Numbered from the stretch's first letter, positions 528 to 19,384 are shown. The stretch is 28,143 nucleotides of DNA from an uncultured Dehalococcoidaceae bacterium (GCA_964547155.1 CAZJMM010000002.1:1-28143); one strand, 5' to 3'. The notes: a model not told the origin generated them from the sequence alone. Translations and numbers: made by a program.

Positions 528-1850
528 GTGAAAAAGTTACTTTTAATCTGTGCCGTGATTGCTGTAGTAACCAGTTTAGTTTTAGTTGGTTGTGCTCCAA
601 AACCGGCACCAGCAGGTGAAATCGTTGTTGGCGTTGTGGCACCACTTACAGGCATGTTTGCTGGGTTTGCTGAAGGCATTCTTTTCGGAATACAAGCTGC
701 TGTCGAGGATATCAACAAGCTGGGTGGAGTAAACGTGGGGGGAACCATGATGAAGATTAAGCTTGTAGTTGTTGATTACGAGAGTGACCCTGCCAAGGCA
801 GGGGCTCTTGCTGAAGACGTAATCCTCCGCAGCAAAGTACAATTCATCGTTCATGGCATTGAGCCACCGCACGTACGCGCCCCTATAGCGGTAAAATGTG
901 AAGCGCACAAGGTGCCCCATGTCACAGGAGTCGGTCCCTTTGAAGCCTGGATGGGTCTGAGGGCAGAGGCGCCAGTGCCATGGACATATACCTGGGCAAT
1001 CAGTTTTGCCATAGCCACCCCGGCTCCACCGGGAGATTTTCGGCATGGCAAGATTGGCTATAACATGATGGACTCCTGGACTTCTGCCCTCAAGGAAATC
1101 GAACCTCTGACCAATAAGAAAGTAGCCGCCCTCGCCTCTGATGAGCCAGACGGCAGAGGTTGGTATCTAGCCTTCAGCCCAGTCTTAAAAGAGATGGGCT
1201 GGGAGGTCTATAAGGTGGAGCAGAGATTCGGTTTGGTCCCTCTGGAGACCATCGACTTCTCGCCCCTTATAAAGGAATGGAAAGACGCTGACTGTGAAAC
1301 ACTCTGGGCAAACTGCCCCGCACCCTGGTTTGGAGTATTCTGGAAACAAGCTTATGCTATGGGTTTCAAACCCAAGATGGTGTACGCTACCAGAGCAGGC
1401 CTGTTTTATTCCGATGTCTTTGCTTGGGGGCCTGACCTGGTTCATGGCATAAGCAACGAAATGTTCTGGAACCCGGCTATCAAAGACTCTCCGGGCATCG
1501 GCGGCACAACCCCCCAATCCTTCGCTGACAGATGGGTAAAAGAGAAAAAACAGCCCTATAGCCAAGTTATGGGGTCCAGCTATGCCGCCGTCCAAGTGCT
1601 GATTGATGCCCTTCAAAGAGCTGGCTCTACCGAGCCTGAGAAGGTCAATGCTGCTCTTGCCAAGACCGATTTGATGACAATATATCACCGGGTAGTCTTT
1701 GATAAGGACCAGTTCAGCCGTGTGCCGGTTGGTTTTGGCCAGTGGATAAAAGTGGATAAACCGTGGCAATTGGAAAATCCCATAGTTATTTCCCAACATG
1801 ACTTCATGCCCATTATGGCACCGCTGTTGTTCCCAATTCCATACGAATAG
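528..1850 (+). CDS. livK: ABC transporter substrate-binding lipoprotein, LivK/PBP1 type
   Basis: 440 aa, GTG start after AAGGAGG, lipobox LVGC, 'VGVVAPLTG...G...AVEDINKLGG' N-terminus, neighbours livGFHM. Confidence 0.9.
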   Translation: MKKLLLICAVIAVVTSLVLVGCAPKPAPAGEIVVGVVAPLTGMFAGFAEGILFGIQAAVEDINKLGGVNVGGTMMKIKLVVVDYESDPAKAGALAEDVILRSKVQFIVHGIEPPHVRAPIAVKCEAHKVPHVTGVGPFEAWMGLRAEAPVPWTYTWAISFAIATPAPPGDFRHGKIGYNMMDSWTSALKEIEPLTNKKVAALASDEPDGRGWYLAFSPVLKEMGWEVYKVEQRFGLVPLETIDFSPLIKEWKDADCETLWANCPAPWFGVFWKQAYAMGFKPKMVYATRAGLFYSDVFAWGPDLVHGISNEMFWNPAIKDSPGIGGTTPQSFADRWVKEKKQPYSQVMGSSYAAVQVLIDALQRAGSTEPEKVNAALAKTDLMTIYHRVVFDKDQFSRVPVGFGQWIKVDKPWQLENPIVISQHDFMPIMAPLLFPIPYE

Positions 1851-1874
1851 ACTCACAGTAGCAGCCTTGTTGCA

Positions 1875-1903
1875 AAAGCCCCTCTCTTTAAGAGAGGGGC
1901 TTT
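1875..1903 (+). terminator. Intrinsic terminator-like hairpin after the SBP gene
   Basis: AAAGCCCCTCTCT-TTA-AGAGAGGGGCTTT, a 13-bp perfect inverted repeat 25 nt after the stop. Confidence 0.75.
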
Positions 1904-1947
1904 CATAAATGTCATATTGCGATTTATGTTGAACCTAAGTCAAAGAG

Positions 1948-1976
1948 TTGACATGCCGGCAGTAGACTAATATTAT
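1948..1976 (+). promoter_or_regulatory. sigma70-type promoter for livGFHM
   Basis: TTGACA (1948-1953), 17 nt, TATTAT (1971-1976). The -35 is also one arm of a GTCAA-N4-TTGAC palindrome (1939-1952). Confidence 0.6.
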
Positions 1977-2015
1977 TTAACATTGATTTTGCCTCATTTT
2001 AGTTGTCCCAAAAAT

Positions 2016-2735
2016 ATGGACGAACCAATACTTTCAATCCAAGGGATAACCAAACGCTTTGGCGGATTAGTTGCTCTCCAGAATGTCAGTTTCGACGTAA
2101 AAGCTGGTGAAATTGTTGGTTTGATGGGTCCCAACGGTGCTGGTAAGACAACTCTGTTAAATATCATAGCTGGTGAATACGCGCCTGACTCTGGTGAAAT
2201 TAGATTTAAGGGACGTAATATAACAAATTGTCCACCCCACGAAGTTTGCCGCCTTGCCATTGCCAGGACTTATCAGATTCCCCAGCCCTTTGTCACTCTA
2301 TCCGCCCGTGATAATCTCCTGGTTTCGGCAATTTTTGGTAGGAAGCTTACAAAACCAGTGGCTGAGCTCGAAAACAGCAAGATTTTGGATTTGGTGGGTC
2401 TTTCAGAGAAGAAAGATTTACCGGCTACTGACCTGCCCACGCTATTGCTCAAAAAACTCGAGTTAGCCAGAGCCTTAGCCCGCGACCCGGAGCTATTATT
2501 GGTCGATGAAATAGCCGCAGGCTCCACCGAGGCAGAAATCCCTAAGATACTGGCTACCATTGCAGAAATTCGCAAAATGAGGAAAACCGTAGTTCTCGTA
2601 GAGCATGTTATGAAAGTGATGGTTAATGCAGTGGACAGAATTGTAGTGATAGATAAGGGGATGAAAATAGCCGAAGGTGAGCCACAGGCAGTAATGAACG
2701 ATAGCAAGGTGATTGAAGCTTATTTTGGTGCTTGA
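2016..2735 (+). CDS. livG: ABC transporter ATP-binding protein, LivG-like
   Basis: Walker A GPNGAGKTT, 'LELARALARDPELLLVDE', H-loop LVEH. ATG 2016 preferred over TTG 1983; neither has a clear SD. Confidence 0.9.
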   Translation: MDEPILSIQGITKRFGGLVALQNVSFDVKAGEIVGLMGPNGAGKTTLLNIIAGEYAPDSGEIRFKGRNITNCPPHEVCRLAIARTYQIPQPFVTLSARDNLLVSAIFGRKLTKPVAELENSKILDLVGLSEKKDLPATDLPTLLLKKLELARALARDPELLLVDEIAAGSTEAEIPKILATIAEIRKMRKTVVLVEHVMKVMVNAVDRIVVIDKGMKIAEGEPQAVMNDSKVIEAYFGA

Positions 2736-2772
2736 TAAATAAATCGTGTTTATAGAGGAGGTTTAGTTACAA

Positions 2773-3498
2773 ATGAAAATGGCTCAAGAAGTGCTGTTGG
2801 AAGTCAGCAACATAGACGTATTCCATGGTACATTTCAAGCCTTATGGGATGTATCACTGGAAGTAAGACGCGGTGAAATGCTGGCTCTTATTGGCAGCAA
2901 TACGGCAGGTAAATCCACGCTGCTGGATACAATTTCAGGCTTACTCCGACCCGCCAAAGGGCACATTGAATTTGAAGGCAAAGATATCACCAGATTAGCC
3001 CCCTACCAGATAGTCGAGCTCGGAATCACACAAGTCCCTGAGGGTAGAGGTATCTTCCCCGAAATGTCTGTATTAGACAATCTTATCATAGGCTCTTATA
3101 GCCGTAAAGCAAGACGAAAGAAAGAAGAAAATCTCAAGATGGTATATGAGCACTTTCCCATATTAGAAAAAAGGAAGAGACAAACTACTAAGACACTTAG
3201 CGGTGGAGAGCAACAAATGCTCGTCATTGGGCGTGGTTTAATGGCAGACCCCGAGTTAATGCTTCTCGATGAGATCTCCCTCGGGCTGGCTCCTATAGTT
3301 GTCAATGAGTTGTTCAAAGCTTTGATGGAAATTAGACAAAGAGGTATTACTATTCTCTTCGTGGAGCAAAACGTAAGGCGAAGCCTACAGGAAGCAGACA
3401 GAGCGTACATATTGGAGAATGGTCGTGTCACTCTCAGTGGCACCGCTGCTGAACTCCAAGAGGAAGAGGAGGTCAAGAAAGCATACTTCGGAATATGA
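2773..3498 (+). CDS. livF: ABC transporter ATP-binding protein, LivF-like
   Basis: Walker A GSNTAGKST, LSGGEQQ signature, LLDE, VEQN. Confidence 0.92.
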   Translation: MKMAQEVLLEVSNIDVFHGTFQALWDVSLEVRRGEMLALIGSNTAGKSTLLDTISGLLRPAKGHIEFEGKDITRLAPYQIVELGITQVPEGRGIFPEMSVLDNLIIGSYSRKARRKKEENLKMVYEHFPILEKRKRQTTKTLSGGEQQMLVIGRGLMADPELMLLDEISLGLAPIVVNELFKALMEIRQRGITILFVEQNVRRSLQEADRAYILENGRVTLSGTAAELQEEEEVKKAYFGI

Positions 3499-3524
3499 GA
3501 ATTTCGGGTATGGATGTGTGATAA

Positions 3525-4391
3525 ATGGCAGGTCTTGGTGACATAACTACTCCCCTTGTAATGGGGATCTTACTGGGCGGGTTATATGCTCTCATTGCCT
3601 TAGGTCTTTCCCTGGTTTTTGGAGTTATGAGATTGATAAACCTCGCCCACGGCGATTTTGTTATCTTGGGTAGCTATCTTGCTTACGCCTTAATGACCTT
3701 CCTGGGAATGGACCCGGTCATAAGCCTGGTTATATGCATACCAGTCATGTTTGCCCTGGGCTTTGGAGTCCAGAGGTATCTCATGAGTCGCGCCTTTGCC
3801 ATATCAATGGAAGCCCCGTTGATAATTGCCTTTGGTATTGCCCTGATACTCCAAAATACTAACCAGATTATCTGGACACCACTGTCAAGAGGATTAACCA
3901 CATCTTATTCCCTCGCCAGCTTTAATCTGGGACAGCTTCAATTTCCGCTGTCATATCTACTCGACTTTATTGCTGCTCTGATAGTAATGTTAGCCTTGCG
4001 CGAATTCCTTATGAGAACTTACTTAGGAAAAGCGATTACCGCTGCTTCACAAAATAAAAGAGCAGCCCACTTAATGGGTATCAATACTGACCGCGTATAT
4101 GGCTTTGCCTTCGCTATCGCTATGGTATCTGCTGCTGTAGCCGGCGTTTTCCTGGGGATGACATTTCCCTTCACTCCAGTCTCAGGAGTGTCTTTCCTCA
4201 TAATTGCTTTTGGTGTGGTGATAATAGGAGGTTTGGGCAGCATGTTAGGAACGTTTATCGGAGGCATTATCCTCGGATTAGTTCAAACGCTTAGCGGGGC
4301 ATACTTGGGTCCAGCTTATCAGATGCTCATTCTATACGTTATGATTCTTGTAGTATTAGCCATAAGACCTCAAGGTCTATTTGGTCGTTAG
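3525..4391 (+). CDS. livH: Branched-chain amino acid ABC permease, LivH-like
   Basis: 'GGLYALIALGLSLVFGVMRLINLAHGDF' motif; hydrophobic; ends RPQGLFG. Confidence 0.92.
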   Translation: MAGLGDITTPLVMGILLGGLYALIALGLSLVFGVMRLINLAHGDFVILGSYLAYALMTFLGMDPVISLVICIPVMFALGFGVQRYLMSRAFAISMEAPLIIAFGIALILQNTNQIIWTPLSRGLTTSYSLASFNLGQLQFPLSYLLDFIAALIVMLALREFLMRTYLGKAITAASQNKRAAHLMGINTDRVYGFAFAIAMVSAAVAGVFLGMTFPFTPVSGVSFLIIAFGVVIIGGLGSMLGTFIGGIILGLVQTLSGAYLGPAYQMLILYVMILVVLAIRPQGLFGR

Positions 4392-4397
4392 AAGAAA

Positions 4398-5390
4398 ATG
4401 AAGTTTCGTATTCCTCTGTTAAGGGTAGGACTGATCCCGCTGCTGGTAATAGTAATTCTGCTGGCGCTATTCCCTGTAATAGGAGTACCACATAGCTGGT
4501 TACTTTATGTCTTCCTCTTTTTTATCTATCTGGCTATGGCTAATATGTGGAATTTACTTGCGGGGTATTCCGGTCTGCTGTCACTATGTCAGCCTGCATT
4601 TCTTGGTTTAGCGGGATATACCTTGGCGATAGGCACCTGGGTTAATATACCATGGTGGGCAGGACTGATAGGCGGCGCTATCGTAGCGGCAATATTTGCT
4701 TTCTTGATTTCTATCCCTGTTTTTAGGCTTAGGGGTATATACTTCGCCATTGGCACCCTGGTTGTGCCTGAAGCGCTGAGGATTGCCTTTTATCTATGGA
4801 AACCGGTTGGGGGGGAAATACACGGTGCCGGTGCAGGCTATATGATAAAGGGTATCGCAGATGTCTCCATGACGCAAATTTACTGGATGGCTTTCATTAT
4901 CGGGGTTGCATCGGTTTTCCTCATGAGATTTATTCTCAAATCAAACTTGGGGCTGGGTCTCGCGGCAATCCACGATAATGATAGAGCAGCTGCCAGTTGT
5001 GGAGTAAACGTTTTCAGACTTAAGCTGTATACATTCATCATTGGCGCTGTAGTTACAGGATTGGCTGGAGCTGTTTTCTATCTCTACCAAGGTTATATTG
5101 AACCATCGGCTACTTTCAACGTGAAGTGGACTATGACACTTTTGTTAGCTACGGTCATAGGTGGCATGCGTACAGAGGAAGGACCTATTATCGGTACTAT
5201 TATTGTAGTCTTCCTGTATTTCTATCTGGCTCGATATGCTGGCTATAGTCTGCTTATACAGGGTGCAATACTGATTTTCGTCATGTTGGCATCACCACAA
5301 GGTATTGTAGGTATAATACGCAATACTGGGTTCTATAGATCACTCTCCCAGTTAGCCAATAGACGATTGGTCAATCTCAGAAACGGGTAA
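4398..5390 (+). CDS. livM: Branched-chain amino acid ABC permease, LivM-like
   Basis: 'WNLLAGYSGLLSLCQPAFLG', 'RLRGIYFAIGTL', 'PQGIVG' motifs. Confidence 0.92.
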   Translation: MKFRIPLLRVGLIPLLVIVILLALFPVIGVPHSWLLYVFLFFIYLAMANMWNLLAGYSGLLSLCQPAFLGLAGYTLAIGTWVNIPWWAGLIGGAIVAAIFAFLISIPVFRLRGIYFAIGTLVVPEALRIAFYLWKPVGGEIHGAGAGYMIKGIADVSMTQIYWMAFIIGVASVFLMRFILKSNLGLGLAAIHDNDRAAASCGVNVFRLKLYTFIIGAVVTGLAGAVFYLYQGYIEPSATFNVKWTMTLLLATVIGGMRTEEGPIIGTIIVVFLYFYLARYAGYSLLIQGAILIFVMLASPQGIVGIIRNTGFYRSLSQLANRRLVNLRNG

Positions 5391-5608: not shown

Positions 5609-7570
5609 TCAGGACTTTAGGTCTTCAATTTGAGCAAAGAAATCTAATGATTGCGGATTGACCAATGCGTCCCTATTCAGCACGGGCTTGCCATGTATGA
5701 TGTTTGTAACTGCGCTCTCTACCTTTTTCATATTGAATGTATATGGTATATCAGGTACTTCAATAATTTTAGCAGGGACATGTCGAGGCGAGGCATTATC
5801 CCGCAGCATTTTTCTAATCTTGTTCCTCAATTCCTCTGTCAATTGGTATCCAGGAGCCAGCTTAACAAAGAGAATTAGACGCTGGTCTCCCTGCCAGTTT
5901 TGCCCAATAACGAGGCTATCAACAATCTCCCCCAGCTTCTCCACCTGATTATATATCTCAGCTGTCCCGATACGCACACCTGAAGGTTTCAGGACTGAAT
6001 CAGATCTCCCGAGAAAAGTATATCCGCCAGTGTCACTGTGGCGAATAACATAATCGCCGTGACGCCAGACATTCTTGCTAGGATAGAAGTCGAAATATGT
6101 TTCGCGGTACTTCTTATTCCCAGGATCATTCCAGAAGTACAGTGGCATGGGGGGAGCGGGAGCTTCACAAACAAGTTCTCCCTCTTTATCAGCAATTGGA
6201 TTTCCTTTCTCATCATAGACGTTAATCTTCATACCGAGGCCTGGACCCTGTAGCTCACCAGCATAGACCGGTAAATCTGGACTTCCAATTGCAAAGCAGC
6301 CGTTTATATCCGTCCCACCGGAGATGGAGTTGAAATGCAGGTCTTTTTTTATTTCTTCATAGACATATTGGAATCCTTCAGCTGAAAGCGGTGAACCCGT
6401 CTGGGATATCTGGCGCAATGAAGTTAGATCATACTTCGTACCGGGTTTGGCGCCTTCACTTCGCAGGGTGTTTATGAAGGTTGCACTACAGCCAAAAATG
6501 GTGATTCTTTCATCTTGGATCAACTTCCACATTGCATTCACATCAGGGTAAAGAGGATTCCCATCGTAGAGAACAATAGTTGCTCCTGTAGCGAGTGAGC
6601 TGAGCAGCCAGTTCCACATCATCCAGCTACATGTTGTTATATAGAAAATAATATCCCCTCGGCGCAAGTCGGAGTGAATAACTAGTTCTTTAAGATGATT
6701 GACCAGTATACCGGCTGTACCCTGCACCATACATTTGGGTTTCCCGGTTGTACCAGAAGAAAACATAATATAGAGGGGATGGTCCGATGGCACCTGCTCA
6801 AATACCATGTCGGTATCCTTTTGTTTGGAAAGAAACTCATCAAAATATACTGAATGTGAGATATGGCTTATATCTGGCTTCTCGTCCAAATAGGTTGAAA
6901 TGATTACTTTCTTCAAAGAGGGCATTCTTTTAACTAGTTCAGTTGCATTTGGTATACTTGTAAATGCCTTCCCTTTGTAAAAATACCCGTTAACAGTAAA
7001 TAATACCTTTGGTTCTATCTGGCTGAAACGATCCAGCGCAGCATCAGGGCCAATATCCGTAGCACACGATGCCCATGTCGCACCAATGCTAGTAGCGGCA
7101 AGCATCGCCTCAGCTGTCTCTATCATGTTTGGCATGTAGCCAACGACACGGTCGCCGGGTGAGACGCCTAAATCACGCAACGACCTGGCTAATCTCGCCA
7201 CAGCGGTATAAAGCTCAGTATATGTTAACGTCGTCCTTTTCTGGGTCTCACCTATAAATATGAATGCTGTTTTGTTATCTCTATAACGAAGGAGGTTCTC
7301 AGCAAAATTCAACCGTGCTCCGGGGAACCACGCAGCACCGGGAAATTTTGATAAGTCATCCACAACCATGTCGTACCTTTTGGATGCTTTTATGCCAGTA
7401 AATTCCCAAACCGCCGACCAGAAGTCCTGTATGCTTGTTACCGACCAATCATATAGCTCGAAATAGGAATGAAAATCATACCCATATCGTTTATTTACAA
7501 AAGCCATGAACTTAGTTGTGTTAGCACTAATCTTTCGTTCTTCTGAGGGTGCCCAAAGCATTTTACTCAT
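5609..7570 (-). CDS. Acetoacetate-CoA ligase (acetoacetyl-CoA synthetase)
   Basis: 653 aa; 'WFPGARLNFAENLLR', 'MFSSGTTGKPKCMVQG', 'TTCSWMMWNW', 'SISGGTD', 'GRSDSVLKPSGVRIGTAEIY' are typical of AacS. Confidence 0.92.
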   Translation of the reverse strand: MSKMLWAPSEERKISANTTKFMAFVNKRYGYDFHSYFELYDWSVTSIQDFWSAVWEFTGIKASKRYDMVVDDLSKFPGAAWFPGARLNFAENLLRYRDNKTAFIFIGETQKRTTLTYTELYTAVARLARSLRDLGVSPGDRVVGYMPNMIETAEAMLAATSIGATWASCATDIGPDAALDRFSQIEPKVLFTVNGYFYKGKAFTSIPNATELVKRMPSLKKVIISTYLDEKPDISHISHSVYFDEFLSKQKDTDMVFEQVPSDHPLYIMFSSGTTGKPKCMVQGTAGILVNHLKELVIHSDLRRGDIIFYITTCSWMMWNWLLSSLATGATIVLYDGNPLYPDVNAMWKLIQDERITIFGCSATFINTLRSEGAKPGTKYDLTSLRQISQTGSPLSAEGFQYVYEEIKKDLHFNSISGGTDINGCFAIGSPDLPVYAGELQGPGLGMKINVYDEKGNPIADKEGELVCEAPAPPMPLYFWNDPGNKKYRETYFDFYPSKNVWRHGDYVIRHSDTGGYTFLGRSDSVLKPSGVRIGTAEIYNQVEKLGEIVDSLVIGQNWQGDQRLILFVKLAPGYQLTEELRNKIRKMLRDNASPRHVPAKIIEVPDIPYTFNMKKVESAVTNIIHGKPVLNRDALVNPQSLDFFAQIEDLKS

Positions 7571-7696: not shown

Positions 7697-7725
7697 ATTT
7701 TATTTAAACATTTTGTTAAAGTCAA
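7697..7725 (-). promoter_or_regulatory. sigma70-type promoter for the acetoacetate-CoA ligase
   Basis: Minus strand TTGACT (7725-7720), 17 nt, TAAAAT (7702-7697). Confidence 0.6.
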
Positions 7726-7824
7726 CTGTCTACACGAGTTCTACCAAAAGTGGTAGTTATGTTGTAGAATAAGCATGAATAACACTGAACCAAGAATTCA
7801 TTTTCATAAAGAGGAGGTTTAGGC

Positions 7825-8619
7825 ATGAGATTTATTGACCCTCATCTTCACACAGATATGATAGATGACATAAACCTTGAAAAACTGGCTATGGCAGGTA
7901 TGGAGGCAGCGGTCATCCCATCCCCACACATGTTAAAAGGGCTATTCACGGCAGAGACAGTTCTCCAACTATGGAGGAGATTATTAGACTTCGAAATCAA
8001 GAGCCTTAAGTCCATGTGTGTAGAGGGGTATGTGGCGCTAAGCATACCATTTTATGGGTTGACTCCAGAAGCTGTTGAGGAATGTCTCGAACAGCTTCCT
8101 AAATACCTTAAAAACGAACGAGTAGTAGGTATGGGTGAGATAGGTCTTGACGTTGGTATCGAAGATGAAGCGAAGCTTTTCAGAGCTCAACTGAGGCTTG
8201 CTAAGGCTCATAATCTCCCCATAATAGTGCATTCTCCCATTCGGCTAGCGCCTCAAGCACCTACGGTAATAAAGCAAATAGTAAATGTTATAAATGAAGA
8301 AAAGTTTCCCTTAGACAGGGTGATTCTGGACCATACTGGAGAGAGTACGTTTGATTATCGTGTCAATACGGGTGCTATGGTTGGACTAAGCGTATGTCAC
8401 GATAAAATGCCTCCTGAGATTGCTGCGCAATATGTGTTTAAAAACCTAGATAAGCGAAACAAGTTGGTTATCAACTCCGAACTCGGATATGGAAATGATG
8501 GTTATTTCTCAATTCCAAGAGTAATCTTAGCCATGAGAATACTGGGGCTAAAAAGAGAGGAGATAGAGAAAGTTATTTTTGAAAACCCGAAGAAATTCTT
8601 TAATCTGCCAATTGATTAG
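7825..8619 (+). CDS. TatD-related metal-dependent TIM-barrel hydrolase (COG1099-like)
   Basis: DPHLH, VGMGEIGLD, IIVHSP, VILDH and INSE motifs; GGAGG SD. Confidence 0.8.
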   Translation: MRFIDPHLHTDMIDDINLEKLAMAGMEAAVIPSPHMLKGLFTAETVLQLWRRLLDFEIKSLKSMCVEGYVALSIPFYGLTPEAVEECLEQLPKYLKNERVVGMGEIGLDVGIEDEAKLFRAQLRLAKAHNLPIIVHSPIRLAPQAPTVIKQIVNVINEEKFPLDRVILDHTGESTFDYRVNTGAMVGLSVCHDKMPPEIAAQYVFKNLDKRNKLVINSELGYGNDGYFSIPRVILAMRILGLKREEIEKVIFENPKKFFNLPID

Positions 8620-9330: not shown

Positions 9331-9435
9331 TATATCACAATCTTTTTTCTTATAAGATGCCTGAATTCAAAGACCCTCTAGAGCTGTAGTTATTAAATTA
9401 GCTTCAGTCAAAATTGTACACTCAAGTCTCGACTG

Positions 9436-9465
9436 TTGACATCACATTGATAAGTCGTTTATCAT
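9436..9465 (+). promoter_or_regulatory. sigma70-type promoter for the USP gene
   Basis: TTGACA (9436-9441), 18 nt, TATCAT (9460-9465), upstream of the SD at 9478-9482. Confidence 0.5.
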
Positions 9466-9488
9466 TCAAGTCAGAAAGGAGGAGCAAG

Positions 9489-9968
9489 ATTTATAGGAAG
9501 GTTTTAGTTCCATTAGACGGGTCCAAACTGGCGGAGTGCATTCTTCCCCACGTGGAGGAACTGGCAACACACAACATGGTCGAGGAAGTCATCTTGGTTA
9601 GTGTCACAGAACGCATCCCGGGCTATAGAGCATGGGCGGACTACAGCCAGCCGCAGGAGGAACGGTTAGCACCTGAAGCTGTGGGTAAGTTAGAAAGACA
9701 GGCTCAAAAATATCTTAACAGGATAGCAAAAGGATTGGAAACTAAAACTAAAGGGATTAAGATACTAACAGAGGTGCTCTTGGGTAATCCTGCTGAAGAG
9801 ATTGCATTCTATGCAGAAACCAAAGGTTGTGACCTTATTGTTATGGCAAGCCATGGTCGTTCTGGCATAAGCAAATGGGCTCACGGAAGTGTTGCCGATA
9901 AAGTACTGAGATCCAGTCGTATCCCAATCCTCATGGTTCGGGCGCCAGGCTGCATAGCTGGGATTTGA
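9489..9968 (+). CDS. Universal stress protein (USP), probable ATT start
   Basis: (M)YRKVLVPLDGSKLAE...LIVMASHGRSGISKWAHGSVADKVLR; GGAGG-6 nt-ATT at 9489. The track's TTG at 9414 lies upstream of the predicted promoter. Confidence 0.88.
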   Translation: MYRKVLVPLDGSKLAECILPHVEELATHNMVEEVILVSVTERIPGYRAWADYSQPQEERLAPEAVGKLERQAQKYLNRIAKGLETKTKGIKILTEVLLGNPAEEIAFYAETKGCDLIVMASHGRSGISKWAHGSVADKVLRSSRIPILMVRAPGCIAGI

Positions 9969-10050: not shown

Positions 10051-10986
10051 CTAGTAGTTGACCTTGTCTTTCCCCTTCAACCCAAGAATGCTCCTGGCTT
10101 CGTCAGGGGTAGCAATTTCTCTCCCCAGTTCCCTGGCAATTCTAACCACTTTTTCTACCAGTTCAGCGTTACTCTTAGCCAATACCCCTTTGCTGACGTA
10201 GATATTATCTTCCAGCCCTACCCTAGCATGTCCACCCATCATAATCGATAGGGTCGCCAGGTTGAACTCGGCGGGATAACCAGCGCCAATGACCGACCAC
10301 TTGTAGTTTTCCGGCCCGAACAATCGGTCACTGGTCTGCTTCATATACATGATATTTTCTAAATCGGCACCAATCGCCCCCAGAATTCCGGTGACAAATT
10401 GCACCCAGATGGGGAACTGCACAAGCTTTCTCCTGACACAGTACTGTATGTTGTACAGGTGCCCCACATCATATGCTTCATGTTCAGGTTTGGTGTTATT
10501 CTCATTCATGGTCTTGCAGAAGTGTTCAATATCACCAAAAGTATTGCGGAAGATAAAATCTATAGTGCTGGTGGCAAATTCTTTCTCCCAAGGATATTTG
10601 TAGTCTGAGTCCTTATACCTCTCTGCTATTGGATGAATCGAGAAGTTGATTGAGCCCATGTTAAATGTTGCCAACTCCGGTTTAAGAGCCGGGACAACCC
10701 TTATCCTTTCCGCCGCCGTCATTTCCATCGTACCGCCGGTGGTTACGCAGACAATAACATTGCTTTTTGACTTGATGAGGGTGGCAATCTCTCGGTAGAC
10801 CGCTGGGTCAGTAGTTGGTTTGCCGGTCTGTGGGTCTCTACCATGGACGTGCACCGAAGCCGCGCCGGCATTGGCGCACCTTACCGCATCATCGGCGATT
10901 TGTTGCGGTGTAAGCGGTAGATAAGGTGTCTGCGTTGGTAGGGTGATATTACCAGTCAAAGCAGCTGTTATGATGAGTTTTTCCAT
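10051..10986 (-). CDS. BKACE/DUF849 beta-keto acid cleavage enzyme; candidate triacetate acetoacetate-lyase (TAL)
   Basis: 'KLIITAALTG', metal-binding HVH in 'SVHVHGRD', 'TTGG', 'GGHARVGLEDN'. Confidence 0.92.
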   Translation of the reverse strand: MEKLIITAALTGNITLPTQTPYLPLTPQQIADDAVRCANAGAASVHVHGRDPQTGKPTTDPAVYREIATLIKSKSNVIVCVTTGGTMEMTAAERIRVVPALKPELATFNMGSINFSIHPIAERYKDSDYKYPWEKEFATSTIDFIFRNTFGDIEHFCKTMNENNTKPEHEAYDVGHLYNIQYCVRRKLVQFPIWVQFVTGILGAIGADLENIMYMKQTSDRLFGPENYKWSVIGAGYPAEFNLATLSIMMGGHARVGLEDNIYVSKGVLAKSNAELVEKVVRIARELGREIATPDEARSILGLKGKDKVNY

Positions 10987-11083: not shown

Positions 11084-12040
11084 TCAAATTTGTTGGCTCT
11101 GTTGTCTTTGCGAATAATCAATAAGGTATTTCGTAAGCCTTTCTCTAGTGCGTTTTATGCTTTCTGGTGTCCAGTTGTCATAAAAACCTTTTCCAGATTT
11201 GAACCCAAGTTCACCTTTCTTTACCTTGTCCTTTAAAAGTGGTGAGGGGTTTGGAGAAGTCTCTAAATCCTTCAAAACGGTATTGTGGATCGCTAGAACT
11301 AAATCTAGCCCAGCCATATCGGCATTCTCAATTGGCCCCAGAACCGCAATCCGGATACCGAAACTTTGCTTAATAGCATCGTCAACAGTAGCTGCATCAG
11401 CAATGCCTTTTTCTACAATTGAGATAGCCTCTCGCCACAGGGCATGCTGGAGGCGGTTAGCCACAAATCCTGGAACATCCTTTAAGCACCTGATGGGATA
11501 TTTCCCGGCCTTTTTCATGAATTGATAGGTTATTTCCATTGTCTCATTAGAAGTATCCTTTCCCTTTACCACTTCAACCAGGGGGATAAGATATGGTGGA
11601 AACCAAAAGTGTGTTCCAAGGATTCTGTCCCTATTCTTGGCTTTAGACGCTATCGCGGTTATACTGATTACCGATGTATTTGTGGCCAGAATAACATCCT
11701 TAGGGCACATCTGGTCTAATTCCTTAAATAAGTCTTGTTTTACTTTTAGATTTTCGGCCACTGATTCGATAATAATCGGAGCCTTCGCAATCACTTCGTC
11801 TAAGTTCCTGGTTATTTTAATCCTGCTTATAATCCTTTGTATTTCATCCTCTGCGCCCGCTTGTCCTTGCAGCAAGGTGGGGAGATTTGACTTGATACTT
11901 TCCACGGCTTTGTCCAGAGTTTGCTGAGTCCGGGAGTATAAAGAGACCTGATAACCAGCCTTGGCAAAATGCAGTGCCAGTCCGTGCCCTATCATGCCCG
12001 CTCCCAGCAAAGCAACGTGATTGATCTCTTCAACTTTCAT
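11084..12040 (-). CDS. Single-module 3-hydroxyacyl-CoA dehydrogenase-like protein; candidate 3-hydroxy-5-oxohexanoate dehydrogenase (TfD)
   Basis: GAGMIG, 'ESVAENLKVKQ', NTS, 'HFWFPPYLIPLVE', 'GFVANRLQHALWREA'. Confidence 0.88.
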   Translation of the reverse strand: MKVEEINHVALLGAGMIGHGLALHFAKAGYQVSLYSRTQQTLDKAVESIKSNLPTLLQGQAGAEDEIQRIISRIKITRNLDEVIAKAPIIIESVAENLKVKQDLFKELDQMCPKDVILATNTSVISITAIASKAKNRDRILGTHFWFPPYLIPLVEVVKGKDTSNETMEITYQFMKKAGKYPIRCLKDVPGFVANRLQHALWREAISIVEKGIADAATVDDAIKQSFGIRIAVLGPIENADMAGLDLVLAIHNTVLKDLETSPNPSPLLKDKVKKGELGFKSGKGFYDNWTPESIKRTRERLTKYLIDYSQRQQSQQI

Positions 12041-12092: not shown

Positions 12093-12377
12093 TTACAGAT
12101 ATCCTGTTAAGCGGTATAAGACTCTCTGAGGTGGCGCAGCGGCACCGGTGCAGATAAACGGCTTGCCGTCCTCACGGTTGTTCCGAGTTCCATGCCTAGT
12201 CAGGCACGGTGTATAAATGATGTCTCCTTCCCTTACTTTATGCCGGGAGTCTCCCAGGAAAACCTCCCCTTTCCCCTTAACAACCTCAGCAATATCTTCG
12301 GAAATGGGGTGGGCATCATAAAGGCACCTCTTTGCACTCGGCACGATTCCTAATGGGGTAATAAGTAACAGGGCCAC
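12093..12377 (-). pseudogene. Second cupin-fold ORF, probably 5'-truncated or degenerate
   Basis: Motif 2 (GDIIYTPCLTRHG) is intact; motif 1 reads DAHPISED. No SD, and the GTG is directly preceded by an in-frame TGA. Confidence 0.5.
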
Positions 12378-12397
12378 TCAGGACCAAGCTGATTCAC

Positions 12398-12736
12398 TTA
12401 ATAGTTAACAATTACCAGCATAGTTACGGGCTTATTGGTCTTGTTGATGACCTCTCTCCCTTCATGGGGCGCAAGGTAAACGGATTCCCAGGGACCTAAG
12501 GTAGTCTCTTCTTTCTTAGTCTTAATGGTAATTTCTCCGTCTAAGACGAAGTATACCTTCTCCGTAGGTGAATCTTCGTAGGCATATTCAGCCCCGCCTC
12601 CGGGGAGGAAGTGCGACATGCCTACCCAAAACTTCTGAGAGCCTGTTTCTTCTTTGCTATGGAGCCTAAGGGCGACCATCTTGAAATGGCCGGGTGGGTC
12701 ATAGGGTTTAGCCTGTTCCAATCGGACCTTTTTCAT
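12398..12736 (-). CDS. Cupin-domain protein
   Basis: 112 aa, 'SHFLPGGGAE...EKVYFVLDGEITI...LGPWESVYLAPHEGREVIN'; strong AGGAGG SD. Confidence 0.88.
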   Translation of the reverse strand: MKKVRLEQAKPYDPPGHFKMVALRLHSKEETGSQKFWVGMSHFLPGGGAEYAYEDSPTEKVYFVLDGEITIKTKKEETTLGPWESVYLAPHEGREVINKTNKPVTMLVIVNY

Positions 12737-12770: not shown

Positions 12771-13535
12771 TTACTGGTCACCTTCGTCTACGATGGCTAC
12801 TAACCTTACCATGGAACCATCACCTTTTACCCATCGGATAGGAAAGCCAGCGATGGTAACCCTCTTGCCCACCACTTTGTCGATGTCACCACCGACGTTC
12901 TCCCATCCCATAATGCCATTTTTCAAGATAATGTTATGGCAGGGCTCCCAGAGTGGAAAATCGTCTATCACTTTGCGTCCGGTTTCTCTTTCATACTCGG
13001 CACACACATCTGGTCGTAGTGGGCCCAATCCATGGGGACCTATAGCGGTAGCTAACGGGTGGTCTAATGCCTGCTGGTCAACCCCGACAGCCTTAACACC
13101 CTTCTCGACAAACCAGTCGCCGGCTTCTTTGTATAGCCCTGGAGAGTAGCAAAAATATCTTACAGTATCTACATAATAATATATATGCCAGTGGGTGTGT
13201 ATGATAACGATATCACCCTTTTCAATCTTGGGTCTGGCTTTTTCCAGGTCATCAGGGGTAATAACACCCCACTTGTTCTTTGGAATGTCTACAACGACGC
13301 CAGTGCCATAATACTTCTCCAGCGGTATCTCGTCAGTATATATGCCCCCCTCAAAAACATGTGCCGGGGAATCAGCGTGTGTTGCACAGTGCATAGTAGT
13401 TGTAAGCCTTTGGGTCAGTACTCCTGCTTTAGCATGATAGTGTATGCGCTCGATTTGGATATCCGTAAAATACGGCCATAAGGGTACACCAAAACCATAA
13501 GGCTGACTTAGATCAACCAGTTTGACTTTTCCCAT
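12771..13535 (-). CDS. Cyclase/kynurenine-formamidase-family metal hydrolase; candidate dihydrophloroglucinol cyclohydrolase (DPGC)
   Basis: 'VDLSQP', metal motif 'HCATHADSPAH', 'KGDIVIIHT', 'ENVGG', 'FPIRWVKGDGSMVRLVA'. Confidence 0.9.
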   Translation of the reverse strand: MGKVKLVDLSQPYGFGVPLWPYFTDIQIERIHYHAKAGVLTQRLTTTMHCATHADSPAHVFEGGIYTDEIPLEKYYGTGVVVDIPKNKWGVITPDDLEKARPKIEKGDIVIIHTHWHIYYYVDTVRYFCYSPGLYKEAGDWFVEKGVKAVGVDQQALDHPLATAIGPHGLGPLRPDVCAEYERETGRKVIDDFPLWEPCHNIILKNGIMGWENVGGDIDKVVGKRVTIAGFPIRWVKGDGSMVRLVAIVDEGDQ

Positions 13536-13576: not shown

Positions 13577-14341
13577 CTACCACGTAGTGACACCACCATC
13601 AATATAAAGAACCTGTCCGGTGATGAAATCTGAGGCCTTTGAGGCGAAAAATATTGTGGCGCCTACAATGTCCTCCGGTGTTGCCCAGCGTCCCAGCGGA
13701 ATCCGTGCTTTCATACTTTGGGCAAATGCCGGGTCTGCTAGTGCTGGGCGGGTCAATTCAGTCTCTACAATTGTAGGAGCAACCGCATTTACTAGAACAT
13801 TATGCTTAGCCCATTCACACGCAAGAGTCCTTGTCAAGGAATCCACGGCACCTTTGCTGGCACAGTAAGCTGCATAGTTTGCAGGCAAACCGTATCTCCC
13901 TCTTACTGATGATAAGTTTATTATCTTGCCGCTATGTTGTTTGATCATTTCCCGTCCTACCGCCTGGCAACAAATAAACGTACCCAGAGTATTGATATCC
14001 ATGACCTGCTGCCACTCATCAATTGGAAAGGTCTCAGCAGGCTTGCGAATTGCCAAGCCGTGAGCATTCACCAGAATATCAATACGAGGGAATGCCTCTA
14101 GGATTTTCTTTACCATATCTGCCACTGACTTCTCCTGTACGACGTCTACAGTAATCGCCAGCGCTTTTCTACCTTTAGCCCGTATCTCTCCAGCTACCTT
14201 TTCCAAGGGCTCGAGTTTGCGGCTTGCGATGACAACATCAGCACCAAAATCAGCCAGACCCAAAGCTAGAGCACGTCCAATGCCACCATGACCACCAACT
14301 ACCAAAGCTACCTTGCCTGTCAAATCAAATAAATCGGTCAT
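13577..14341 (-). CDS. Classical SDR oxidoreductase, NADP(H)-type; candidate phloroglucinol reductase (PGR)
   Basis: GGHGGIG, basic 'ASRK' after beta2, 'NLSSVR', catalytic YCASK. Confidence 0.9.
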   Translation of the reverse strand: MTDLFDLTGKVALVVGGHGGIGRALALGLADFGADVVIASRKLEPLEKVAGEIRAKGRKALAITVDVVQEKSVADMVKKILEAFPRIDILVNAHGLAIRKPAETFPIDEWQQVMDINTLGTFICCQAVGREMIKQHSGKIINLSSVRGRYGLPANYAAYCASKGAVDSLTRTLACEWAKHNVLVNAVAPTIVETELTRPALADPAFAQSMKARIPLGRWATPEDIVGATIFFASKASDFITGQVLYIDGGVTTW

Positions 14342-14654: not shown

Positions 14655-15629
14655 ATGCAGGGAATAGAAAACGAGAAGCTTAAAGAAATTTATATCACAA
14701 TGGTGAGGATTCGGGCTTTTGAGGAGAGGGCAATAGCAGAATACCGCAAGGGACTCTGCCCCGGTTTTATCCATTCCTCAATTGGGCAAGAGGCAATCCC
14801 AGCTGCTGTTTGCGCATTTCTTAGGAAGGATGACTATATTTTGACTACCCATAGGGGCCACGGCGATATCATCGCTAAGGGAGCTAGATTCGATAAAATG
14901 TTTGCCGAGCTCTTTGCCAAGGAGACAGGATACTGCAAAGGTAGAGGAGGCTCAATGCATATTGTGGCAACAGACCTCAACATGCTTGGGGCTACTGCCA
15001 TTGTTGGTGCAGGTGTACCTATAGCTAGTGGGGTTGCCCTCGGCTGCAAGATGCAGAACTTGGATAGGGTAACAGTTTGCTTCCTTGGCGATGGTGCAAC
15101 CTGTACTGGAGCTTTTCATGAGGGTCTTGGCTTGGCGACAATTTTTGAGCTACCAGTAGTCTTTGTCTGTGAGAACAATCAGTACGCGATGAGCACTCCC
15201 CAGAAGGACTATACCAAGCTTAAGCATCTAGCTGATAGAGCAAAGGCATATGGGGTTCCCGGGATAACCGTGGACGGAAACGATGCTGTGACTGTTGCCA
15301 AAGTAGCCAATAAAGCAATTGAAAAGGCTAGAGGAGGTAGGGGACCTACCCTTATCGATGCAGTCACTTATAGATATTACGGGCATCACATGGGTGACCC
15401 CGGAATAAGCTACAGAACCAAAGAAGAAATTGAGGAATGGAGAAAGCGCGATCCTATCAAAAGGCTCCAAAACCATCTTTTAGAGGCAAAGTTAATTACT
15501 GAATCAGAGATTAATGAAATCCAAAGTAGTGTAACTAAGGAGCTTGACAAGGCAGTCAAGTTTGCTACCGAGAGCCCCGAGCCGAGGACTGAAGACGCCC
15601 TTAACGATATCTACTTTGTGGCAGAATAA
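14655..15629 (+). CDS. ThDP-dependent 2-oxoacid/acetoin dehydrogenase E1 alpha
   Basis: 'THRGHG', 'GRGGSMH', ThDP motif GDGA...ENN, 'TYRYYGHHMGDP'. Confidence 0.93.
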   Translation: MQGIENEKLKEIYITMVRIRAFEERAIAEYRKGLCPGFIHSSIGQEAIPAAVCAFLRKDDYILTTHRGHGDIIAKGARFDKMFAELFAKETGYCKGRGGSMHIVATDLNMLGATAIVGAGVPIASGVALGCKMQNLDRVTVCFLGDGATCTGAFHEGLGLATIFELPVVFVCENNQYAMSTPQKDYTKLKHLADRAKAYGVPGITVDGNDAVTVAKVANKAIEKARGGRGPTLIDAVTYRYYGHHMGDPGISYRTKEEIEEWRKRDPIKRLQNHLLEAKLITESEINEIQSSVTKELDKAVKFATESPEPRTEDALNDIYFVAE

Positions 15630-15646
15630 TGTCAAGGGAGTGAAAA

Positions 15647-16639
15647 ATGCGAGAGTTAACCTACAGAGAAGCGTTGCGTGAAGCGCTCAGGGAGGAGTTG
15701 AGGCGTGATGAGTCAGTTTTCCTCTTGGGTGAAGATATAGCTGAATATGGCAGCGCCTATAAGGTAACACAGGGATTGGTGGATGAATTTGGTCACGATA
15801 GGGTAAGGAATACACCTTTGGCCGAATCAGCGGTAGCTGGTGCAGCGCTGGGAGCTGCCTTAGTAAGGATGCGACCGGTAGCCGAGATAATGTATATTGA
15901 CTTTTCTCTCCTCGCCTTGGATCAAATCTTCAACCAGATAGCAAAGTTTCGCTATATGACTGGTGGCGGAGTCAAGATACCGCTGGTGATACGAACCCAG
16001 GGTGGTGGAGGTAGGTCTGCCGGGCTTCATCATTCTCAGTCTTTAGAGGCATTATATGCTCATATTCCAGGGCTCATAGTGGTTATGCCGTCCACTCCGT
16101 ATGATGCCAAAGGCTTGCTCAAGTCCAGCATAAGAGACGATAATCCGGTCATATTTATCGAGCACAAAGGGCTCTATGCCCAGTCAGGGATGGTTCCTGA
16201 GGAAGAGTATCTGGTGCCGCTGGGAAAAGCGGAGGTTAAGCGTCAGGGCAAAGACATTACTGCCATTGCTTACTCAAACAGCCTTATCCTAACTTTGAAA
16301 GCTGCTGAGGCGCTAGAAAAGGAAGGTATATCTTTAGAGGTGGTTGACCCGCGGACGCTAAGGCCTCTAGATAAGGATACCGTACTGAATTCAGTAGAGA
16401 AGACGGGCAGAGTAATGATAATTCATGAAGCTTGTAAGACGGGGGGATTTGGTGCGGAGATAGCCGCTATTGTTGCCGAGGAGGCTTTTGATTACTTGGA
16501 TGCACCGATAAAGCGAGTGGCGGCTCTGGATTCGCCTATTCCCTTCAACCCTAAGTTAGAAGATTATGTCCTCCCCAACGAGAATGACATTATAAGGGGA
16601 GCGTTAGAATTGATGGGAAAGAAAGTCCCTGTGCAGTAA
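15647..16639 (+). CDS. 2-oxoacid/acetoin dehydrogenase E1 beta
   Basis: 'GEDI', 'RVRNTPLAES', 'HHSQSLE', 'PVIFIEHK', 'VDPRTLRPLD'. Confidence 0.93.
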   Translation: MRELTYREALREALREELRRDESVFLLGEDIAEYGSAYKVTQGLVDEFGHDRVRNTPLAESAVAGAALGAALVRMRPVAEIMYIDFSLLALDQIFNQIAKFRYMTGGGVKIPLVIRTQGGGGRSAGLHHSQSLEALYAHIPGLIVVMPSTPYDAKGLLKSSIRDDNPVIFIEHKGLYAQSGMVPEEEYLVPLGKAEVKRQGKDITAIAYSNSLILTLKAAEALEKEGISLEVVDPRTLRPLDKDTVLNSVEKTGRVMIIHEACKTGGFGAEIAAIVAEEAFDYLDAPIKRVAALDSPIPFNPKLEDYVLPNENDIIRGALELMGKKVPVQ

Positions 16640-16703
16640 TCTAATTAAGCCGACGCTTCAATTTCAAAGGCAAAACCATAAGAAGGCTAACGGAGATATA
16701 AGG

Positions 16704-17939
16704 ATGGCTACCGCGGTAATATTACCTAAACTTGATGAAGCAATGCTTACAGGAAAAATCGTAAGGTGGCTGAAGAAAGAGGGGGACTGGGTGGAAAAGG
16801 GCGAAGGCATTGTTGAAATAGAAACCGAGAAGGTAACTTTCGAGGTTGAAGCGGAGGAATCCGGTATCTTAGGTAAGGTAATGGCAAAAGAAGGGGACGA
16901 GGTACCGGTAGGGACAATTATTGTCTTTATCCTTCAGCGGGGAGAAAAAGCGCCTGAGGTTGCAGAACCTGTAATGGTGATTGAAAGAAAGGCAAAGGCT
17001 GAAATGCCCATAGCCGTAGCTAGGGAAGAGATTCAGGTTAAAGTACCCGAGGCACCAAAGGAAGCCCAAGCTATAAAAATCACCCCTGTGGCAAGGAAGA
17101 TAGCTCAAGAATATAATATTGATATAACTGCCATAAAGGGAACGGGTCCGGAGGGGAGGATAGTCAAGGAAGATGTCCTGCGAGCCGTAGAGGAAAGCAA
17201 GGTGGCAGCAGCTCAACCTGTCCGGGAGGAGCCAGAATTGGCTGAAGAGCAAATGGCACCACTATCTTCTATGCGGAAGGTTATTGCCAGGCGCATGACA
17301 GAGAGCTTTCAAACACCGCATTTCTACCTGACGGTGGAGGTTGAAGCTCGGGAACTGGTGAAAACTAATAAACAGTTGATGCCACTTATAGAGGACAAAA
17401 CTGGAATAAGACCGACCATTACTGATTTGATTGTTAAGATGGCAGCGAAAGCGCTGGAGGATAACCCTTCTATGAATTGTGCCTATGTTGATGGGTCTGT
17501 CAAGTTATTCAGGCGAATAGATATAGGATTGGTTACCGCCGTCGAAGGAGGGCTGGTTGTCCCCGTTATCCGTCAGACCAACAAAAAGTCATTGGCGGAG
17601 ATTACTCAAGCCCGGTTTGAGCTAGTTCAGAAGGCAAGAGATGGCAAACTGACTATGGCAGAAATGAGAGGTAGTACTTTCACTATTTCCAACTTGGGGA
17701 TGTTCGGGATAGACCAGTTCAGCGCCATCCTCCAACCTCCTGAAGCGGCTATTTTAGCTGTTGGTCGGATCGCAGACAAACCAGTGGTGCGAGAGGGACA
17801 GATAGTAATAAGACCCATGATGACGCTGACTTTGTCCATTGATCACCGCGTTCTTGATGGCGTTATCGGAGCCCGGTTTCTGCAGAGCCTGAAGAATTAC
17901 ATTGAAAATCCTGCATTGTGCTTTTGTAGTACGACTTAA
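16704..17939 (+). CDS. Dihydrolipoamide acyltransferase E2 with one lipoyl domain
   Basis: Lipoyl site 'EIETEKV', E3-binding 'TPVARKIA...GTGPEGRI', catalytic 'DHRVLDG'. Confidence 0.94.
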   Translation: MATAVILPKLDEAMLTGKIVRWLKKEGDWVEKGEGIVEIETEKVTFEVEAEESGILGKVMAKEGDEVPVGTIIVFILQRGEKAPEVAEPVMVIERKAKAEMPIAVAREEIQVKVPEAPKEAQAIKITPVARKIAQEYNIDITAIKGTGPEGRIVKEDVLRAVEESKVAAAQPVREEPELAEEQMAPLSSMRKVIARRMTESFQTPHFYLTVEVEARELVKTNKQLMPLIEDKTGIRPTITDLIVKMAAKALEDNPSMNCAYVDGSVKLFRRIDIGLVTAVEGGLVVPVIRQTNKKSLAEITQARFELVQKARDGKLTMAEMRGSTFTISNLGMFGIDQFSAILQPPEAAILAVGRIADKPVVREGQIVIRPMMTLTLSIDHRVLDGVIGARFLQSLKNYIENPALCFCSTT

Positions 17940-17973
17940 ACCTCCTTAATCCACAGAATAAAGGGGCAAATCA

Positions 17974-19359
17974 GTGGCTAAGAATATCGTAATCGTTGGT
18001 GGGGGGACCGGTGGCTATGTAGCTGCCATTCGAGCTGCCCAGTTAGGCGCACAAGTTACTCTTATCGAAAAGGACACTCTTGGGGGAACATGTGTCAACC
18101 GAGGTTGTATTCCAACCAAAGCATTACTTCAATCAGCCGATATCTTGGCAAAAATCAGGCATGCTGAAGCCTTTGGTATCTCAGTGGATAAAGTCTCCAT
18201 AGATTTCTCAGTGATAACTAAACGGAAGGAAGCAGTGGTGAAGCGATTGGTGGATGGCGTAGCCTATCTAATGAGGAAGCACAGGATTAAGGTCATTAAA
18301 GGCATTGGCACCTTGATTGATTTCAAGACAGTGAGCATTTTAGGAGAGAATGACAAAATAAATGCTGATAGCATCGTTATCGCTACCGGCTCAAAAGCGT
18401 CTACAGTTCCCATTAAGGGCATTAATGAATCTGGAGTCATGACGAGTGATGAAGCTTTAACCATGAGCCAACTTCCTAAGAGTATTGTCATCATTGGCGG
18501 AGGGGTGATCGGACTGGAATTTGCCCAGATTATGCATAGGCTGGGAGGTAAAGTAACTATTGTAGAGATGATGCCTCAAGTACTGCCCACCGAGGATTTG
18601 GAAATTGCCAACATGCTTGAAGACAGACTAAAGAAAGAAGGCATTGAGATATTCACCGGTGCCACGGTCACCAGCATCAAGCCTGACAAACAAGAGGGGA
18701 AGGTGGTTTCGTTCACCGCTAAGGATGACAACACTGAACGAAAAATTATAGGGGACAAAGTACTGCTTGCCGTGGGGAGACGTCCTTATACCGATGACCT
18801 GGGAGTAGATAAGCTGGGTCTTGTCACGGATAATGGCAGGCTTGTTGTCAATGAACGGATGGAGACTAATGTACCGGGCGTCTATGCCATTGGCGATGTG
18901 GTGGGGGGACTCATGTTGGCTCATGTGGCAATGAATGAAGGTATATGTGCCGTGGAGAATATCATGGGTGCTGGGAGGAAGATAGATTATCGGGCTGTCC
19001 CTCGATGCGTCTATACTACTCCTGAGGTAGCGGGGGTTGGGCTAACTGAGATGGAAGCCAAAGAAGAGTATGGGAATATTAAGGTCGGCCGGTTTCCCTT
19101 TACAGCTAGTGGTAAAGCACTGATACTGAATGAGACAGCGGGTATGGTGAAAATCATTGCTGATGCCAAATATGGAGGAATTCTGGGTGTGCACATCATC
19201 GGTCCTCAGGCGACTGAGTTAATCGCTGAGGCTGTTCTCGGAATGAGAATGGAAGCCACTCTTGAAGACATTGCTTCTGCTATTCACGCTCACCCCACAC
19301 TCTCAGAAGCAATGATGGAGGCTGCCCTGAACGCTGGAGGAAAGACCATCCATTTCTAA
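17974..19359 (+). CDS. lpdA: Dihydrolipoamide dehydrogenase E3
   Basis: GGGTGG, redox disulfide 'GGTCVNRGCIPTK', GGGVIG, 'HAHPTLSE'. Confidence 0.95.
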   Translation: MAKNIVIVGGGTGGYVAAIRAAQLGAQVTLIEKDTLGGTCVNRGCIPTKALLQSADILAKIRHAEAFGISVDKVSIDFSVITKRKEAVVKRLVDGVAYLMRKHRIKVIKGIGTLIDFKTVSILGENDKINADSIVIATGSKASTVPIKGINESGVMTSDEALTMSQLPKSIVIIGGGVIGLEFAQIMHRLGGKVTIVEMMPQVLPTEDLEIANMLEDRLKKEGIEIFTGATVTSIKPDKQEGKVVSFTAKDDNTERKIIGDKVLLAVGRRPYTDDLGVDKLGLVTDNGRLVVNERMETNVPGVYAIGDVVGGLMLAHVAMNEGICAVENIMGAGRKIDYRAVPRCVYTTPEVAGVGLTEMEAKEEYGNIKVGRFPFTASGKALILNETAGMVKIIADAKYGGILGVHIIGPQATELIAEAVLGMRMEATLEDIASAIHAHPTLSEAMMEAALNAGGKTIHF

Positions 19360-19384
19360 ACCACTGAAAAGGGAGGGAGAACTT

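Follow-up and report, generated by a model that had tools for sequence, protein, structure and literature searches.

The acetoacetate–CoA ligase (AacS) gene that lies beside a putative phloroglucinol operon in a Dehalococcoidia-like genome probably serves to convert the acetoacetate released by triacetate acetoacetate-lyase (TAL) into acetoacetyl-CoA. The gene resides in the window analysed here, which is the entire 28,143-bp contig C2 of a 1.57-Mb, 285-contig metagenome-assembled genome (MAG). We consider acetoacetate salvage the most likely role because the pairing of AacS with phloroglucinol operons recurs in other bacteria. Judged from its sequence, the gene product is a canonical AMP-forming acetoacetate–CoA ligase. 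Its in vivo substrate, joint expression with the operon and any preference for the ligase over the CoA-transferase that the genome also encodes are inferred from genomic context.

In the scenario that we propose, a second AacS paralogue would have been drawn into the anaerobic degradation of phloroglucinol. Phloroglucinol would be processed to triacetate via phloroglucinol reductase (PGR), dihydrophloroglucinol cyclohydrolase (DPGC) and TfD, and a BKACE enzyme acting as TAL would turn triacetate and acetyl-CoA into acetoacetyl-CoA and free acetoacetate, as is known for TAL (PMC10470551). AacS would then activate the acetoacetate to acetoacetyl-CoA at the expense of one ATP, which is split to AMP and PPi. 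Thiolases encoded elsewhere in the genome would cleave acetoacetyl-CoA to acetyl-CoA, one molecule of which would re-prime TAL, and the six ring carbons would all end as acetyl-CoA.

The ligase gene and its surroundings

Table 1. Positions of the AacS gene, its neighbours and two upstream sequence elements in the window
Feature	Position	Strand	Basis or remark
LivK-type ABC transporter: binding protein, two ATPases, two permeases	528–5390	+	Pfam; convergent with AacS
Acetoacetate–CoA ligase (AacS), second paralogue of the genome	5609–7570	-	TIGR01217, 4WD1 alignment
Sigma-70-like promoter match TTGACT-17-TAAAAT	7697–7725	-	10/12 match, 127 nt before the AacS start codon
Palindrome CTACCA-N4-TGGTAG	7741–7756		Just upstream of the -35 element; sole exact copy in the window
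TatD/amidohydrolase-like hydrolase, divergent from AacS	7825–8619	+	PF01026, 51.8 bits
Universal stress protein (Usp)	9414–9968	+	PF00582
BKACE, probable TAL, source of free acetoacetate	10051–10986	-	PF05853, 351.6 bits
3-Hydroxyacyl-CoA-dehydrogenase-family enzyme, TfD-like	11084–12040	-	3HCDH_N + 3HCDH
Two small cupins: cupB (12093–12377) and cupA (12398–12736)	12093–12736	-	Cupin_2
DPGC, cyclase family	12771–13535	-	PF04199
SDR, candidate PGR	13577–14341	-	adh_short / adh_short_C2

The AacS open reading frame starts with ATG and encodes 653 amino acids with the Pfam domains ACAS_N and AMP-binding. With 856 bits it clears the cut-off of the NCBIfam equivalog TIGR01217 (520.9), and with 881.5 bits that of NF002937 (639); the rival models Acs (296.6) and PrpE (196.6) stay far under their cut-offs. 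Since the NCBIfam alignment spans model positions 4–652 of 652, the protein is full length, as an earlier note on this DNA had claimed. The Streptomyces lividans AacS structure 4WD1 aligns to it end to end (E 5.5e-174). Its ANL adenylation motifs comprise SSGTTGKPK at residues 271–279 and GRSDSVLKPSGVRIG, and the catalytic A10 lysine, K615, corresponds to K617 of 4WD1. Where the acyl pocket of Salmonella Acs has V310, T311, V386 and W414, the window enzyme has M317, M318, T391 and G418, all identical to the pocket residues of 4WD1. The enlarged pocket of the solved AacS, in which glycine takes the place of Acs Trp414, is thus found here as well.

The same note had put the gene about 2.5 kb from BKACE on the same strand, in a window without thiolase or CoA-transferase, and had credited it with a consensus promoter of its own. 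The first two points hold: the gap is 2,481 bp with both genes on the minus strand, and a domain scan of window ORFs of at least 80 aa returned neither a thiolase nor a CoA-transferase. The promoter did not live up to its description, because the element listed in Table 1 falls short of the consensus and is one of 16 promoter-like matches in its region, compared with 9.9 ± 2.7 in shuffled sequences; it is weak evidence for a promoter of AacS. An archaeal origin, which would void the sigma-70 promoter claim altogether, was considered and rejected, as the organism has sigma-70 genes and no TBP; it is a bacterium. The nearest relatives of the gene cluster are Dehalococcoidia.

Because the plus-strand TatD-like and Usp genes sit between AacS and BKACE, AacS forms a separate transcription unit outside the operon. 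Homologues of these two intervening genes occur in 0 of 80 DPGC loci from other genomes; speculatively, the TatD-like hydrolase may be a type of lactonase. A comparison of the sequences upstream of AacS, the operon and the transporter for a shared operator motif yielded only Shine-Dalgarno-like words. Copies of the palindrome with two mismatches are not above chance in the window.

Pfam confirmed the adjacent genes of the SDR, cyclase and 3HCDH families, which correspond to PGR, DPGC and TfD. Together with BKACE, they are taken, on family assignments, to make up the pathway that Zhou et al. 2023 described for anaerobic phloroglucinol degradation (PMC10470551). The DPGC homologues in other genomes are 75–91% identical across phyla and lie in clusters that also bear pyrogallol transhydroxylase. 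The best NCBIfam match of the window BKACE is NF053538, a model of the 3,5-dioxohexanoate enzyme, with 412.5 bits, i.e. just below the cut-off of 430, followed by Kce with 282. The residue aligned near Glu14 of Kce is hydrophobic, as would be expected for an amine-free substrate.

A side observation concerns cupA, a small cupin of about 112 aa that comes immediately behind DPGC in the majority of clusters, across phyla. With homologues in 42 of the 81 loci, cupA stands next after DPGC in every gene map examined. A Clostridium scatologenes cupin of the same size as the cupA homologues, CSCA_1081, is listed in the supplementary proteome of phloroglucinol-grown cells of PMC10470551 and is not discussed in the text.

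On the other side of the operon, divergent from the SDR gene, lies an E1a/E1b/E2/E3/LipB/LipA set followed by AOR. Genes 48–57% identical to the E1a/E1b(/E2/E3) genes, which resemble those of 2-oxoacid or acetoin dehydrogenases (window 14655–20963), are present at most 10 kb from DPGC homologues in three loci (L053, L084, L085) that are without PGR, TfD and TAL.

Given these neighbours, AacS might serve an adjoining pathway instead, acting on a keto acid or acetoacetate that is imported by the convergent ABC transporter, or in conjunction with the E1/E2/E3 complex and AOR. The convergent orientation of AacS and the transporter operon would agree with this, as would a Deltaproteobacterial locus (L022) in which AacS sits between catabolic and transporter genes. 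In about 12 other loci, however, among them L012, L022, L044 and L048, homologous transporter genes stand beside the DPGC cluster, and in L012, L044 and L048 that cluster has no AacS; the transporter is therefore better assigned to the phloroglucinol cluster. As for the E1/E2/E3 genes, none of the other loci combines them with AacS. We regard a role of AacS in a neighbouring pathway as far-fetched.

Linkage of AacS to DPGC in other species

For comparison, we collected 80 of more than 524 DPGC loci, with 10-kb flanks, from 79 species genomes. ORF clustering, over 81 loci, revealed recurrent families: PGR, TfD, the small cupin, BKACE, the large and small subunits of pyrogallol transhydroxylase, IclR, ABC transporter parts, AacS, DUF362 and phloretin/DAPG hydrolase. 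The clustering thus shows the collected loci to be genuine phloroglucinol/pyrogallol clusters. A PGR-type SDR is found in 52 and a TfD-type 3HCDH in 44 of the 81 loci. AacS is one of about 15 ORF families that are present in at least eight of them, the rest being pathway, transporter and regulator genes and DUF362. The DUF362 protein is itself encoded in eight DPGC loci (L026:8405–9658 and seven others). ORF cluster 8 was discarded as an artefact of antisense ORFs over DPGC in GC-rich genomes.

The earlier note had proposed a survey of AacS linkage across genomes, and its outcome favours the association. Eight of the 79 other species, from three phyla, have AacS within 10 kb of DPGC (L013, L015, L021, L022, L027, L060, L069 and L072), so the linkage is not unique to the window genome. 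The linked proteins are 49–70% identical to the window AacS, and all six that were scanned exceed the TIGR01217 cut-off. An AacS above this cut-off is encoded in 35 of the 79 DPGC genomes, mostly as a single copy. From AacS copy numbers, genome sizes and locus lengths we computed a chance expectation of 0.17 linked loci, which the eight observed ones exceed about 46-fold (Poisson P ~2e-11; P = 8e-4 if only three events are counted as independent).

The arrangements differ among lineages. Three Desulfobacterota MAGs carry AacS as the last gene of the catabolic array: in L021 (Desulfobacteraceae) and L022 ('Deltaproteobacteria') the order on one strand is DPGC-cupA-BKACE-SDR-HCDH-AacS, with 156 and 223 bp, respectively, before AacS, and L027 (Syntrophobacterales) has DPGC-cupA-SDR-HCDH-AacS on the same strand, in a cluster without BKACE. 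Such an uninterrupted same-strand array (gaps of 156–223 bp) is seen in these three loci and not in the window. In the actinomycetotal locus L015, AacS comes after the transhydroxylase genes, and in three Chloroflexota loci (L060, L069, L072) after DPGC-cupA. In the nearest relatives of the window cluster, namely L012 and two genomes of the same order, G316 and G364, the cluster occurs without AacS at its side; G316 encodes no AacS at all.

The BKACE-less layouts bear on a different role for the ligase, in which it would activate one of two C6 intermediates, triacetate (3,5-dioxohexanoate) or (S)-3-hydroxy-5-oxohexanoate, and thereby open a CoA-dependent thiolytic branch that runs parallel to TAL or replaces it. 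A triacetyl-CoA route has reportedly been proposed for Pelobacter acidigallici. In L060, L069 and L072 the AacS-class gene directly follows DPGC-cupA in loci without BKACE and TfD, BKACE was not detectable in the whole genomes either, and in L069 the ligase gene is followed by one for an enoyl-CoA hydratase; the BKACE-free cluster of L027 points in the same direction. The BKACE-less copies, however, are a clade of their own in which motifs next to the pocket are altered (WVMW, GGTEAIACF), whereas the window AacS carries the canonical WMMW, TGSP and GGTDINGCF. As the window enzyme has this canonical pocket, and intact TfD and TAL are already at hand for C6 acids, C6 activation is very unlikely in the window, although other lineages may well employ it.

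The three Chloroflexota clusters (L060:9190–15181, L069:9190–15024, L072:9989–13120) are worth recording in their own right. Their layout is (PGR)-DPGC-cupA-(OYE-type flavoenzyme)-AacS-like, with a phloretin/DAPG hydrolase nearby, and they may represent a TAL-independent, CoA-dependent route. One could go further and suppose that AacS-family ligases were recruited repeatedly for two jobs, namely acetoacetate salvage in TAL-bearing clusters and activation of the C6 ring-opening product by the pocket-modified clade in BKACE-less Chloroflexota, with the window paralogue also accepting triacetate and thus providing a TAL bypass; taken as a whole, we find this combination quite unlikely.

Seven loci of Dehalococcoidales (L063, L070, L074, L075, L076, L079, L081) combine SDR-DPGC-cupA with a family-III CoA-transferase that is 72–100% identical among these loci. 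Some of them also bear a bicupin, RidA and a cupB homologue. All seven are without BKACE and 3HCDH genes and apparently represent another variant of the lower pathway.

Two AacS paralogues in one genome

The window genome has two AacS genes, located on contigs C2 and C238. The C238 protein is 80–83% identical to the AacS of relatives and nested among them (SH-aLRT 100), whereas the window AacS is only 68–72% identical to these proteins. The latter instead forms a clade (support 100) with the metagenomic proteins P0122 (80% identical), P0124 and P0128. About 2 kb separate the P0122 gene from a BKACE gene at a contig end, and P0128 belongs to a same-strand MarR-BKACE-AacS array in which the gap is 110 bp; DPGC is absent from the 10 kb around this array. 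BKACE linkage is consequently seen in all three clade members with informative context, the contig of P0124 being too short. The housekeeping AacS genes of eight relatives, by contrast, have unrelated neighbours, and BKACE is absent from the 9 kb around them. On phylogeny and gene context, the window AacS is best classified as an extra paralogue from a BKACE-associated clade, and the C238 copy as the housekeeping orthologue. The two-paralogue assignment rests on the binning of a MAG with 3.55% contamination, in which mis-binning is possible, although the composition of both C2 and C238 is typical of the bin.

Two archaeal AacS by annotation, P0194 from Hadarchaeales and P0223 from Bathyarchaeota, are 72–73% identical to the window protein. 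The phylogeny of AacS is blurred because, as these sequences illustrate, the family is either unusually conserved or exchanged across domains. A sequence alignment revealed no positions that separate the window clade from unlinked or housekeeping AacS, and therefore there is no sequence sign of a new specificity or substrate.

It is against this background that a general-purpose AacS has to be weighed, one that functions in ketone-body or PHB turnover or in lipid synthesis from acetoacetate and that lies next to the operon by accident. Among 401 genomes sampled from the class, AacS occurs in 32 and DPGC in five. The two occur together only in the window genome and in G364, unlinked in the latter, and 30 of the 32 AacS-bearing genomes are without DPGC, which indicates general roles for AacS. 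With AacS in two of five DPGC genomes versus 30 of 396 others, co-occurrence in this sample is uninformative. P0125, P0127 and P0123, which are 74–75% identical to the window AacS, stand in thiolase and acyl-CoA dehydrogenase contexts, and the separate transcription unit without an operator in common with the operon would likewise suit a gene of general use. Yet C238 already provides the housekeeping orthologue, the window clade is BKACE-linked wherever its context is informative, and the excess of DPGC linkage over expectation has arisen in several phyla and layouts. An accidental neighbourhood is accordingly rather unlikely, and we retain acetoacetate salvage as the probable role of the window paralogue.

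Ligase, CoA-transferase and known pathways

Genes for ScoAB/CtfAB-like CoA-transferases were found in six DPGC loci, none of which contains AacS. The occurrence of AacS and ScoAB/CtfAB in separate loci fits two alternative solutions for one step. According to the earlier note, the organism uses an ATP-dependent ligase instead of a CoA-transferase. This claim stands in part: the recurrent AacS linkage and the BKACE-associated paralogue speak for the use of the ligase, but 'instead of a transferase' is not supported because the genome also encodes a 3-oxoacid CoA-transferase of the ScoAB/PcaIJ type on contig C4. Several thiolases are encoded on other contigs of the genome.

The ScoA/ScoB genes on C4 of this genome (L100:763–3564 of G000) adjoin an acetophenone/acetone-carboxylase delta-like gene and a methylmalonyl-CoA epimerase gene. 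This neighbourhood suggests a second route to acetoacetate in the same organism, by ketone carboxylation.

In the searchable full-text literature there is no paper that links acetoacetyl-CoA synthetase/ligase to phloroglucinol degradation. The ligase-bearing cluster is a plausible and comparatively well supported, if modest, variation on the published pathway, in which a non-orthologous enzyme takes over a peripheral step, and because such a replacement is predictable, specialists will find it useful rather than surprising. In the published pathway an ATP-neutral CoA-transferase closes the carbon balance, which suits fermenters. The ligase in the clusters described here would be irreversible and ATP-spending, and it is found in lineages other than those of the fermenters examined to date, namely Dehalococcoidia, Desulfobacterota and Actinomycetota. 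This suggests an energetic trade-off in which scavenging at low substrate is favoured over ATP yield. For tools that annotate polyphenol metabolism, AacS offers an extra marker of the last pathway step.

Characterised acetoacetyl-CoA synthetases have been studied in the contexts of ketone bodies, PHB or growth on acetoacetate. With these enzymes (4WD1; EC 6.2.1.16) the window AacS shares full-length homology, ANL motifs, the catalytic lysine and the pocket residues; unlike them, it is a second paralogue beside an aromatic-degradation operon.

The cluster of C. scatologenes comprises PGR, DPGC, TfD and TAL as well as CtfAB and a thiolase (Zhou et al. 2023, PMC10470551). There, acetoacetate is re-activated without ATP cost by the cluster-encoded acetyl/butyryl-CoA:acetoacetate CoA-transferase (PMC10470551). 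The four core enzyme families are common to this cluster and the window, but the window has neither CtfAB nor thiolase, and an AMP-forming ligase adjoins instead. A ligase, synthetase or AMP-binding neighbour goes unmentioned in the text and accessible supplements of PMC10470551.

All BKACE reactions set acetoacetate free, and for the oxidation of deoxyribonate Price et al. 2019 noted the need to activate it by a CoA-transferase or a CoA-synthetase (PMC6365646). In both pathways the acetoacetate from BKACE would need re-activation and thiolysis. Whereas the activating genes of deoxyribonate oxidation are unlinked and redundant (PMC6365646), AacS is physically coupled to BKACE in the window, in P0128 and in the two desulfobacterotal loci L021 and L022.
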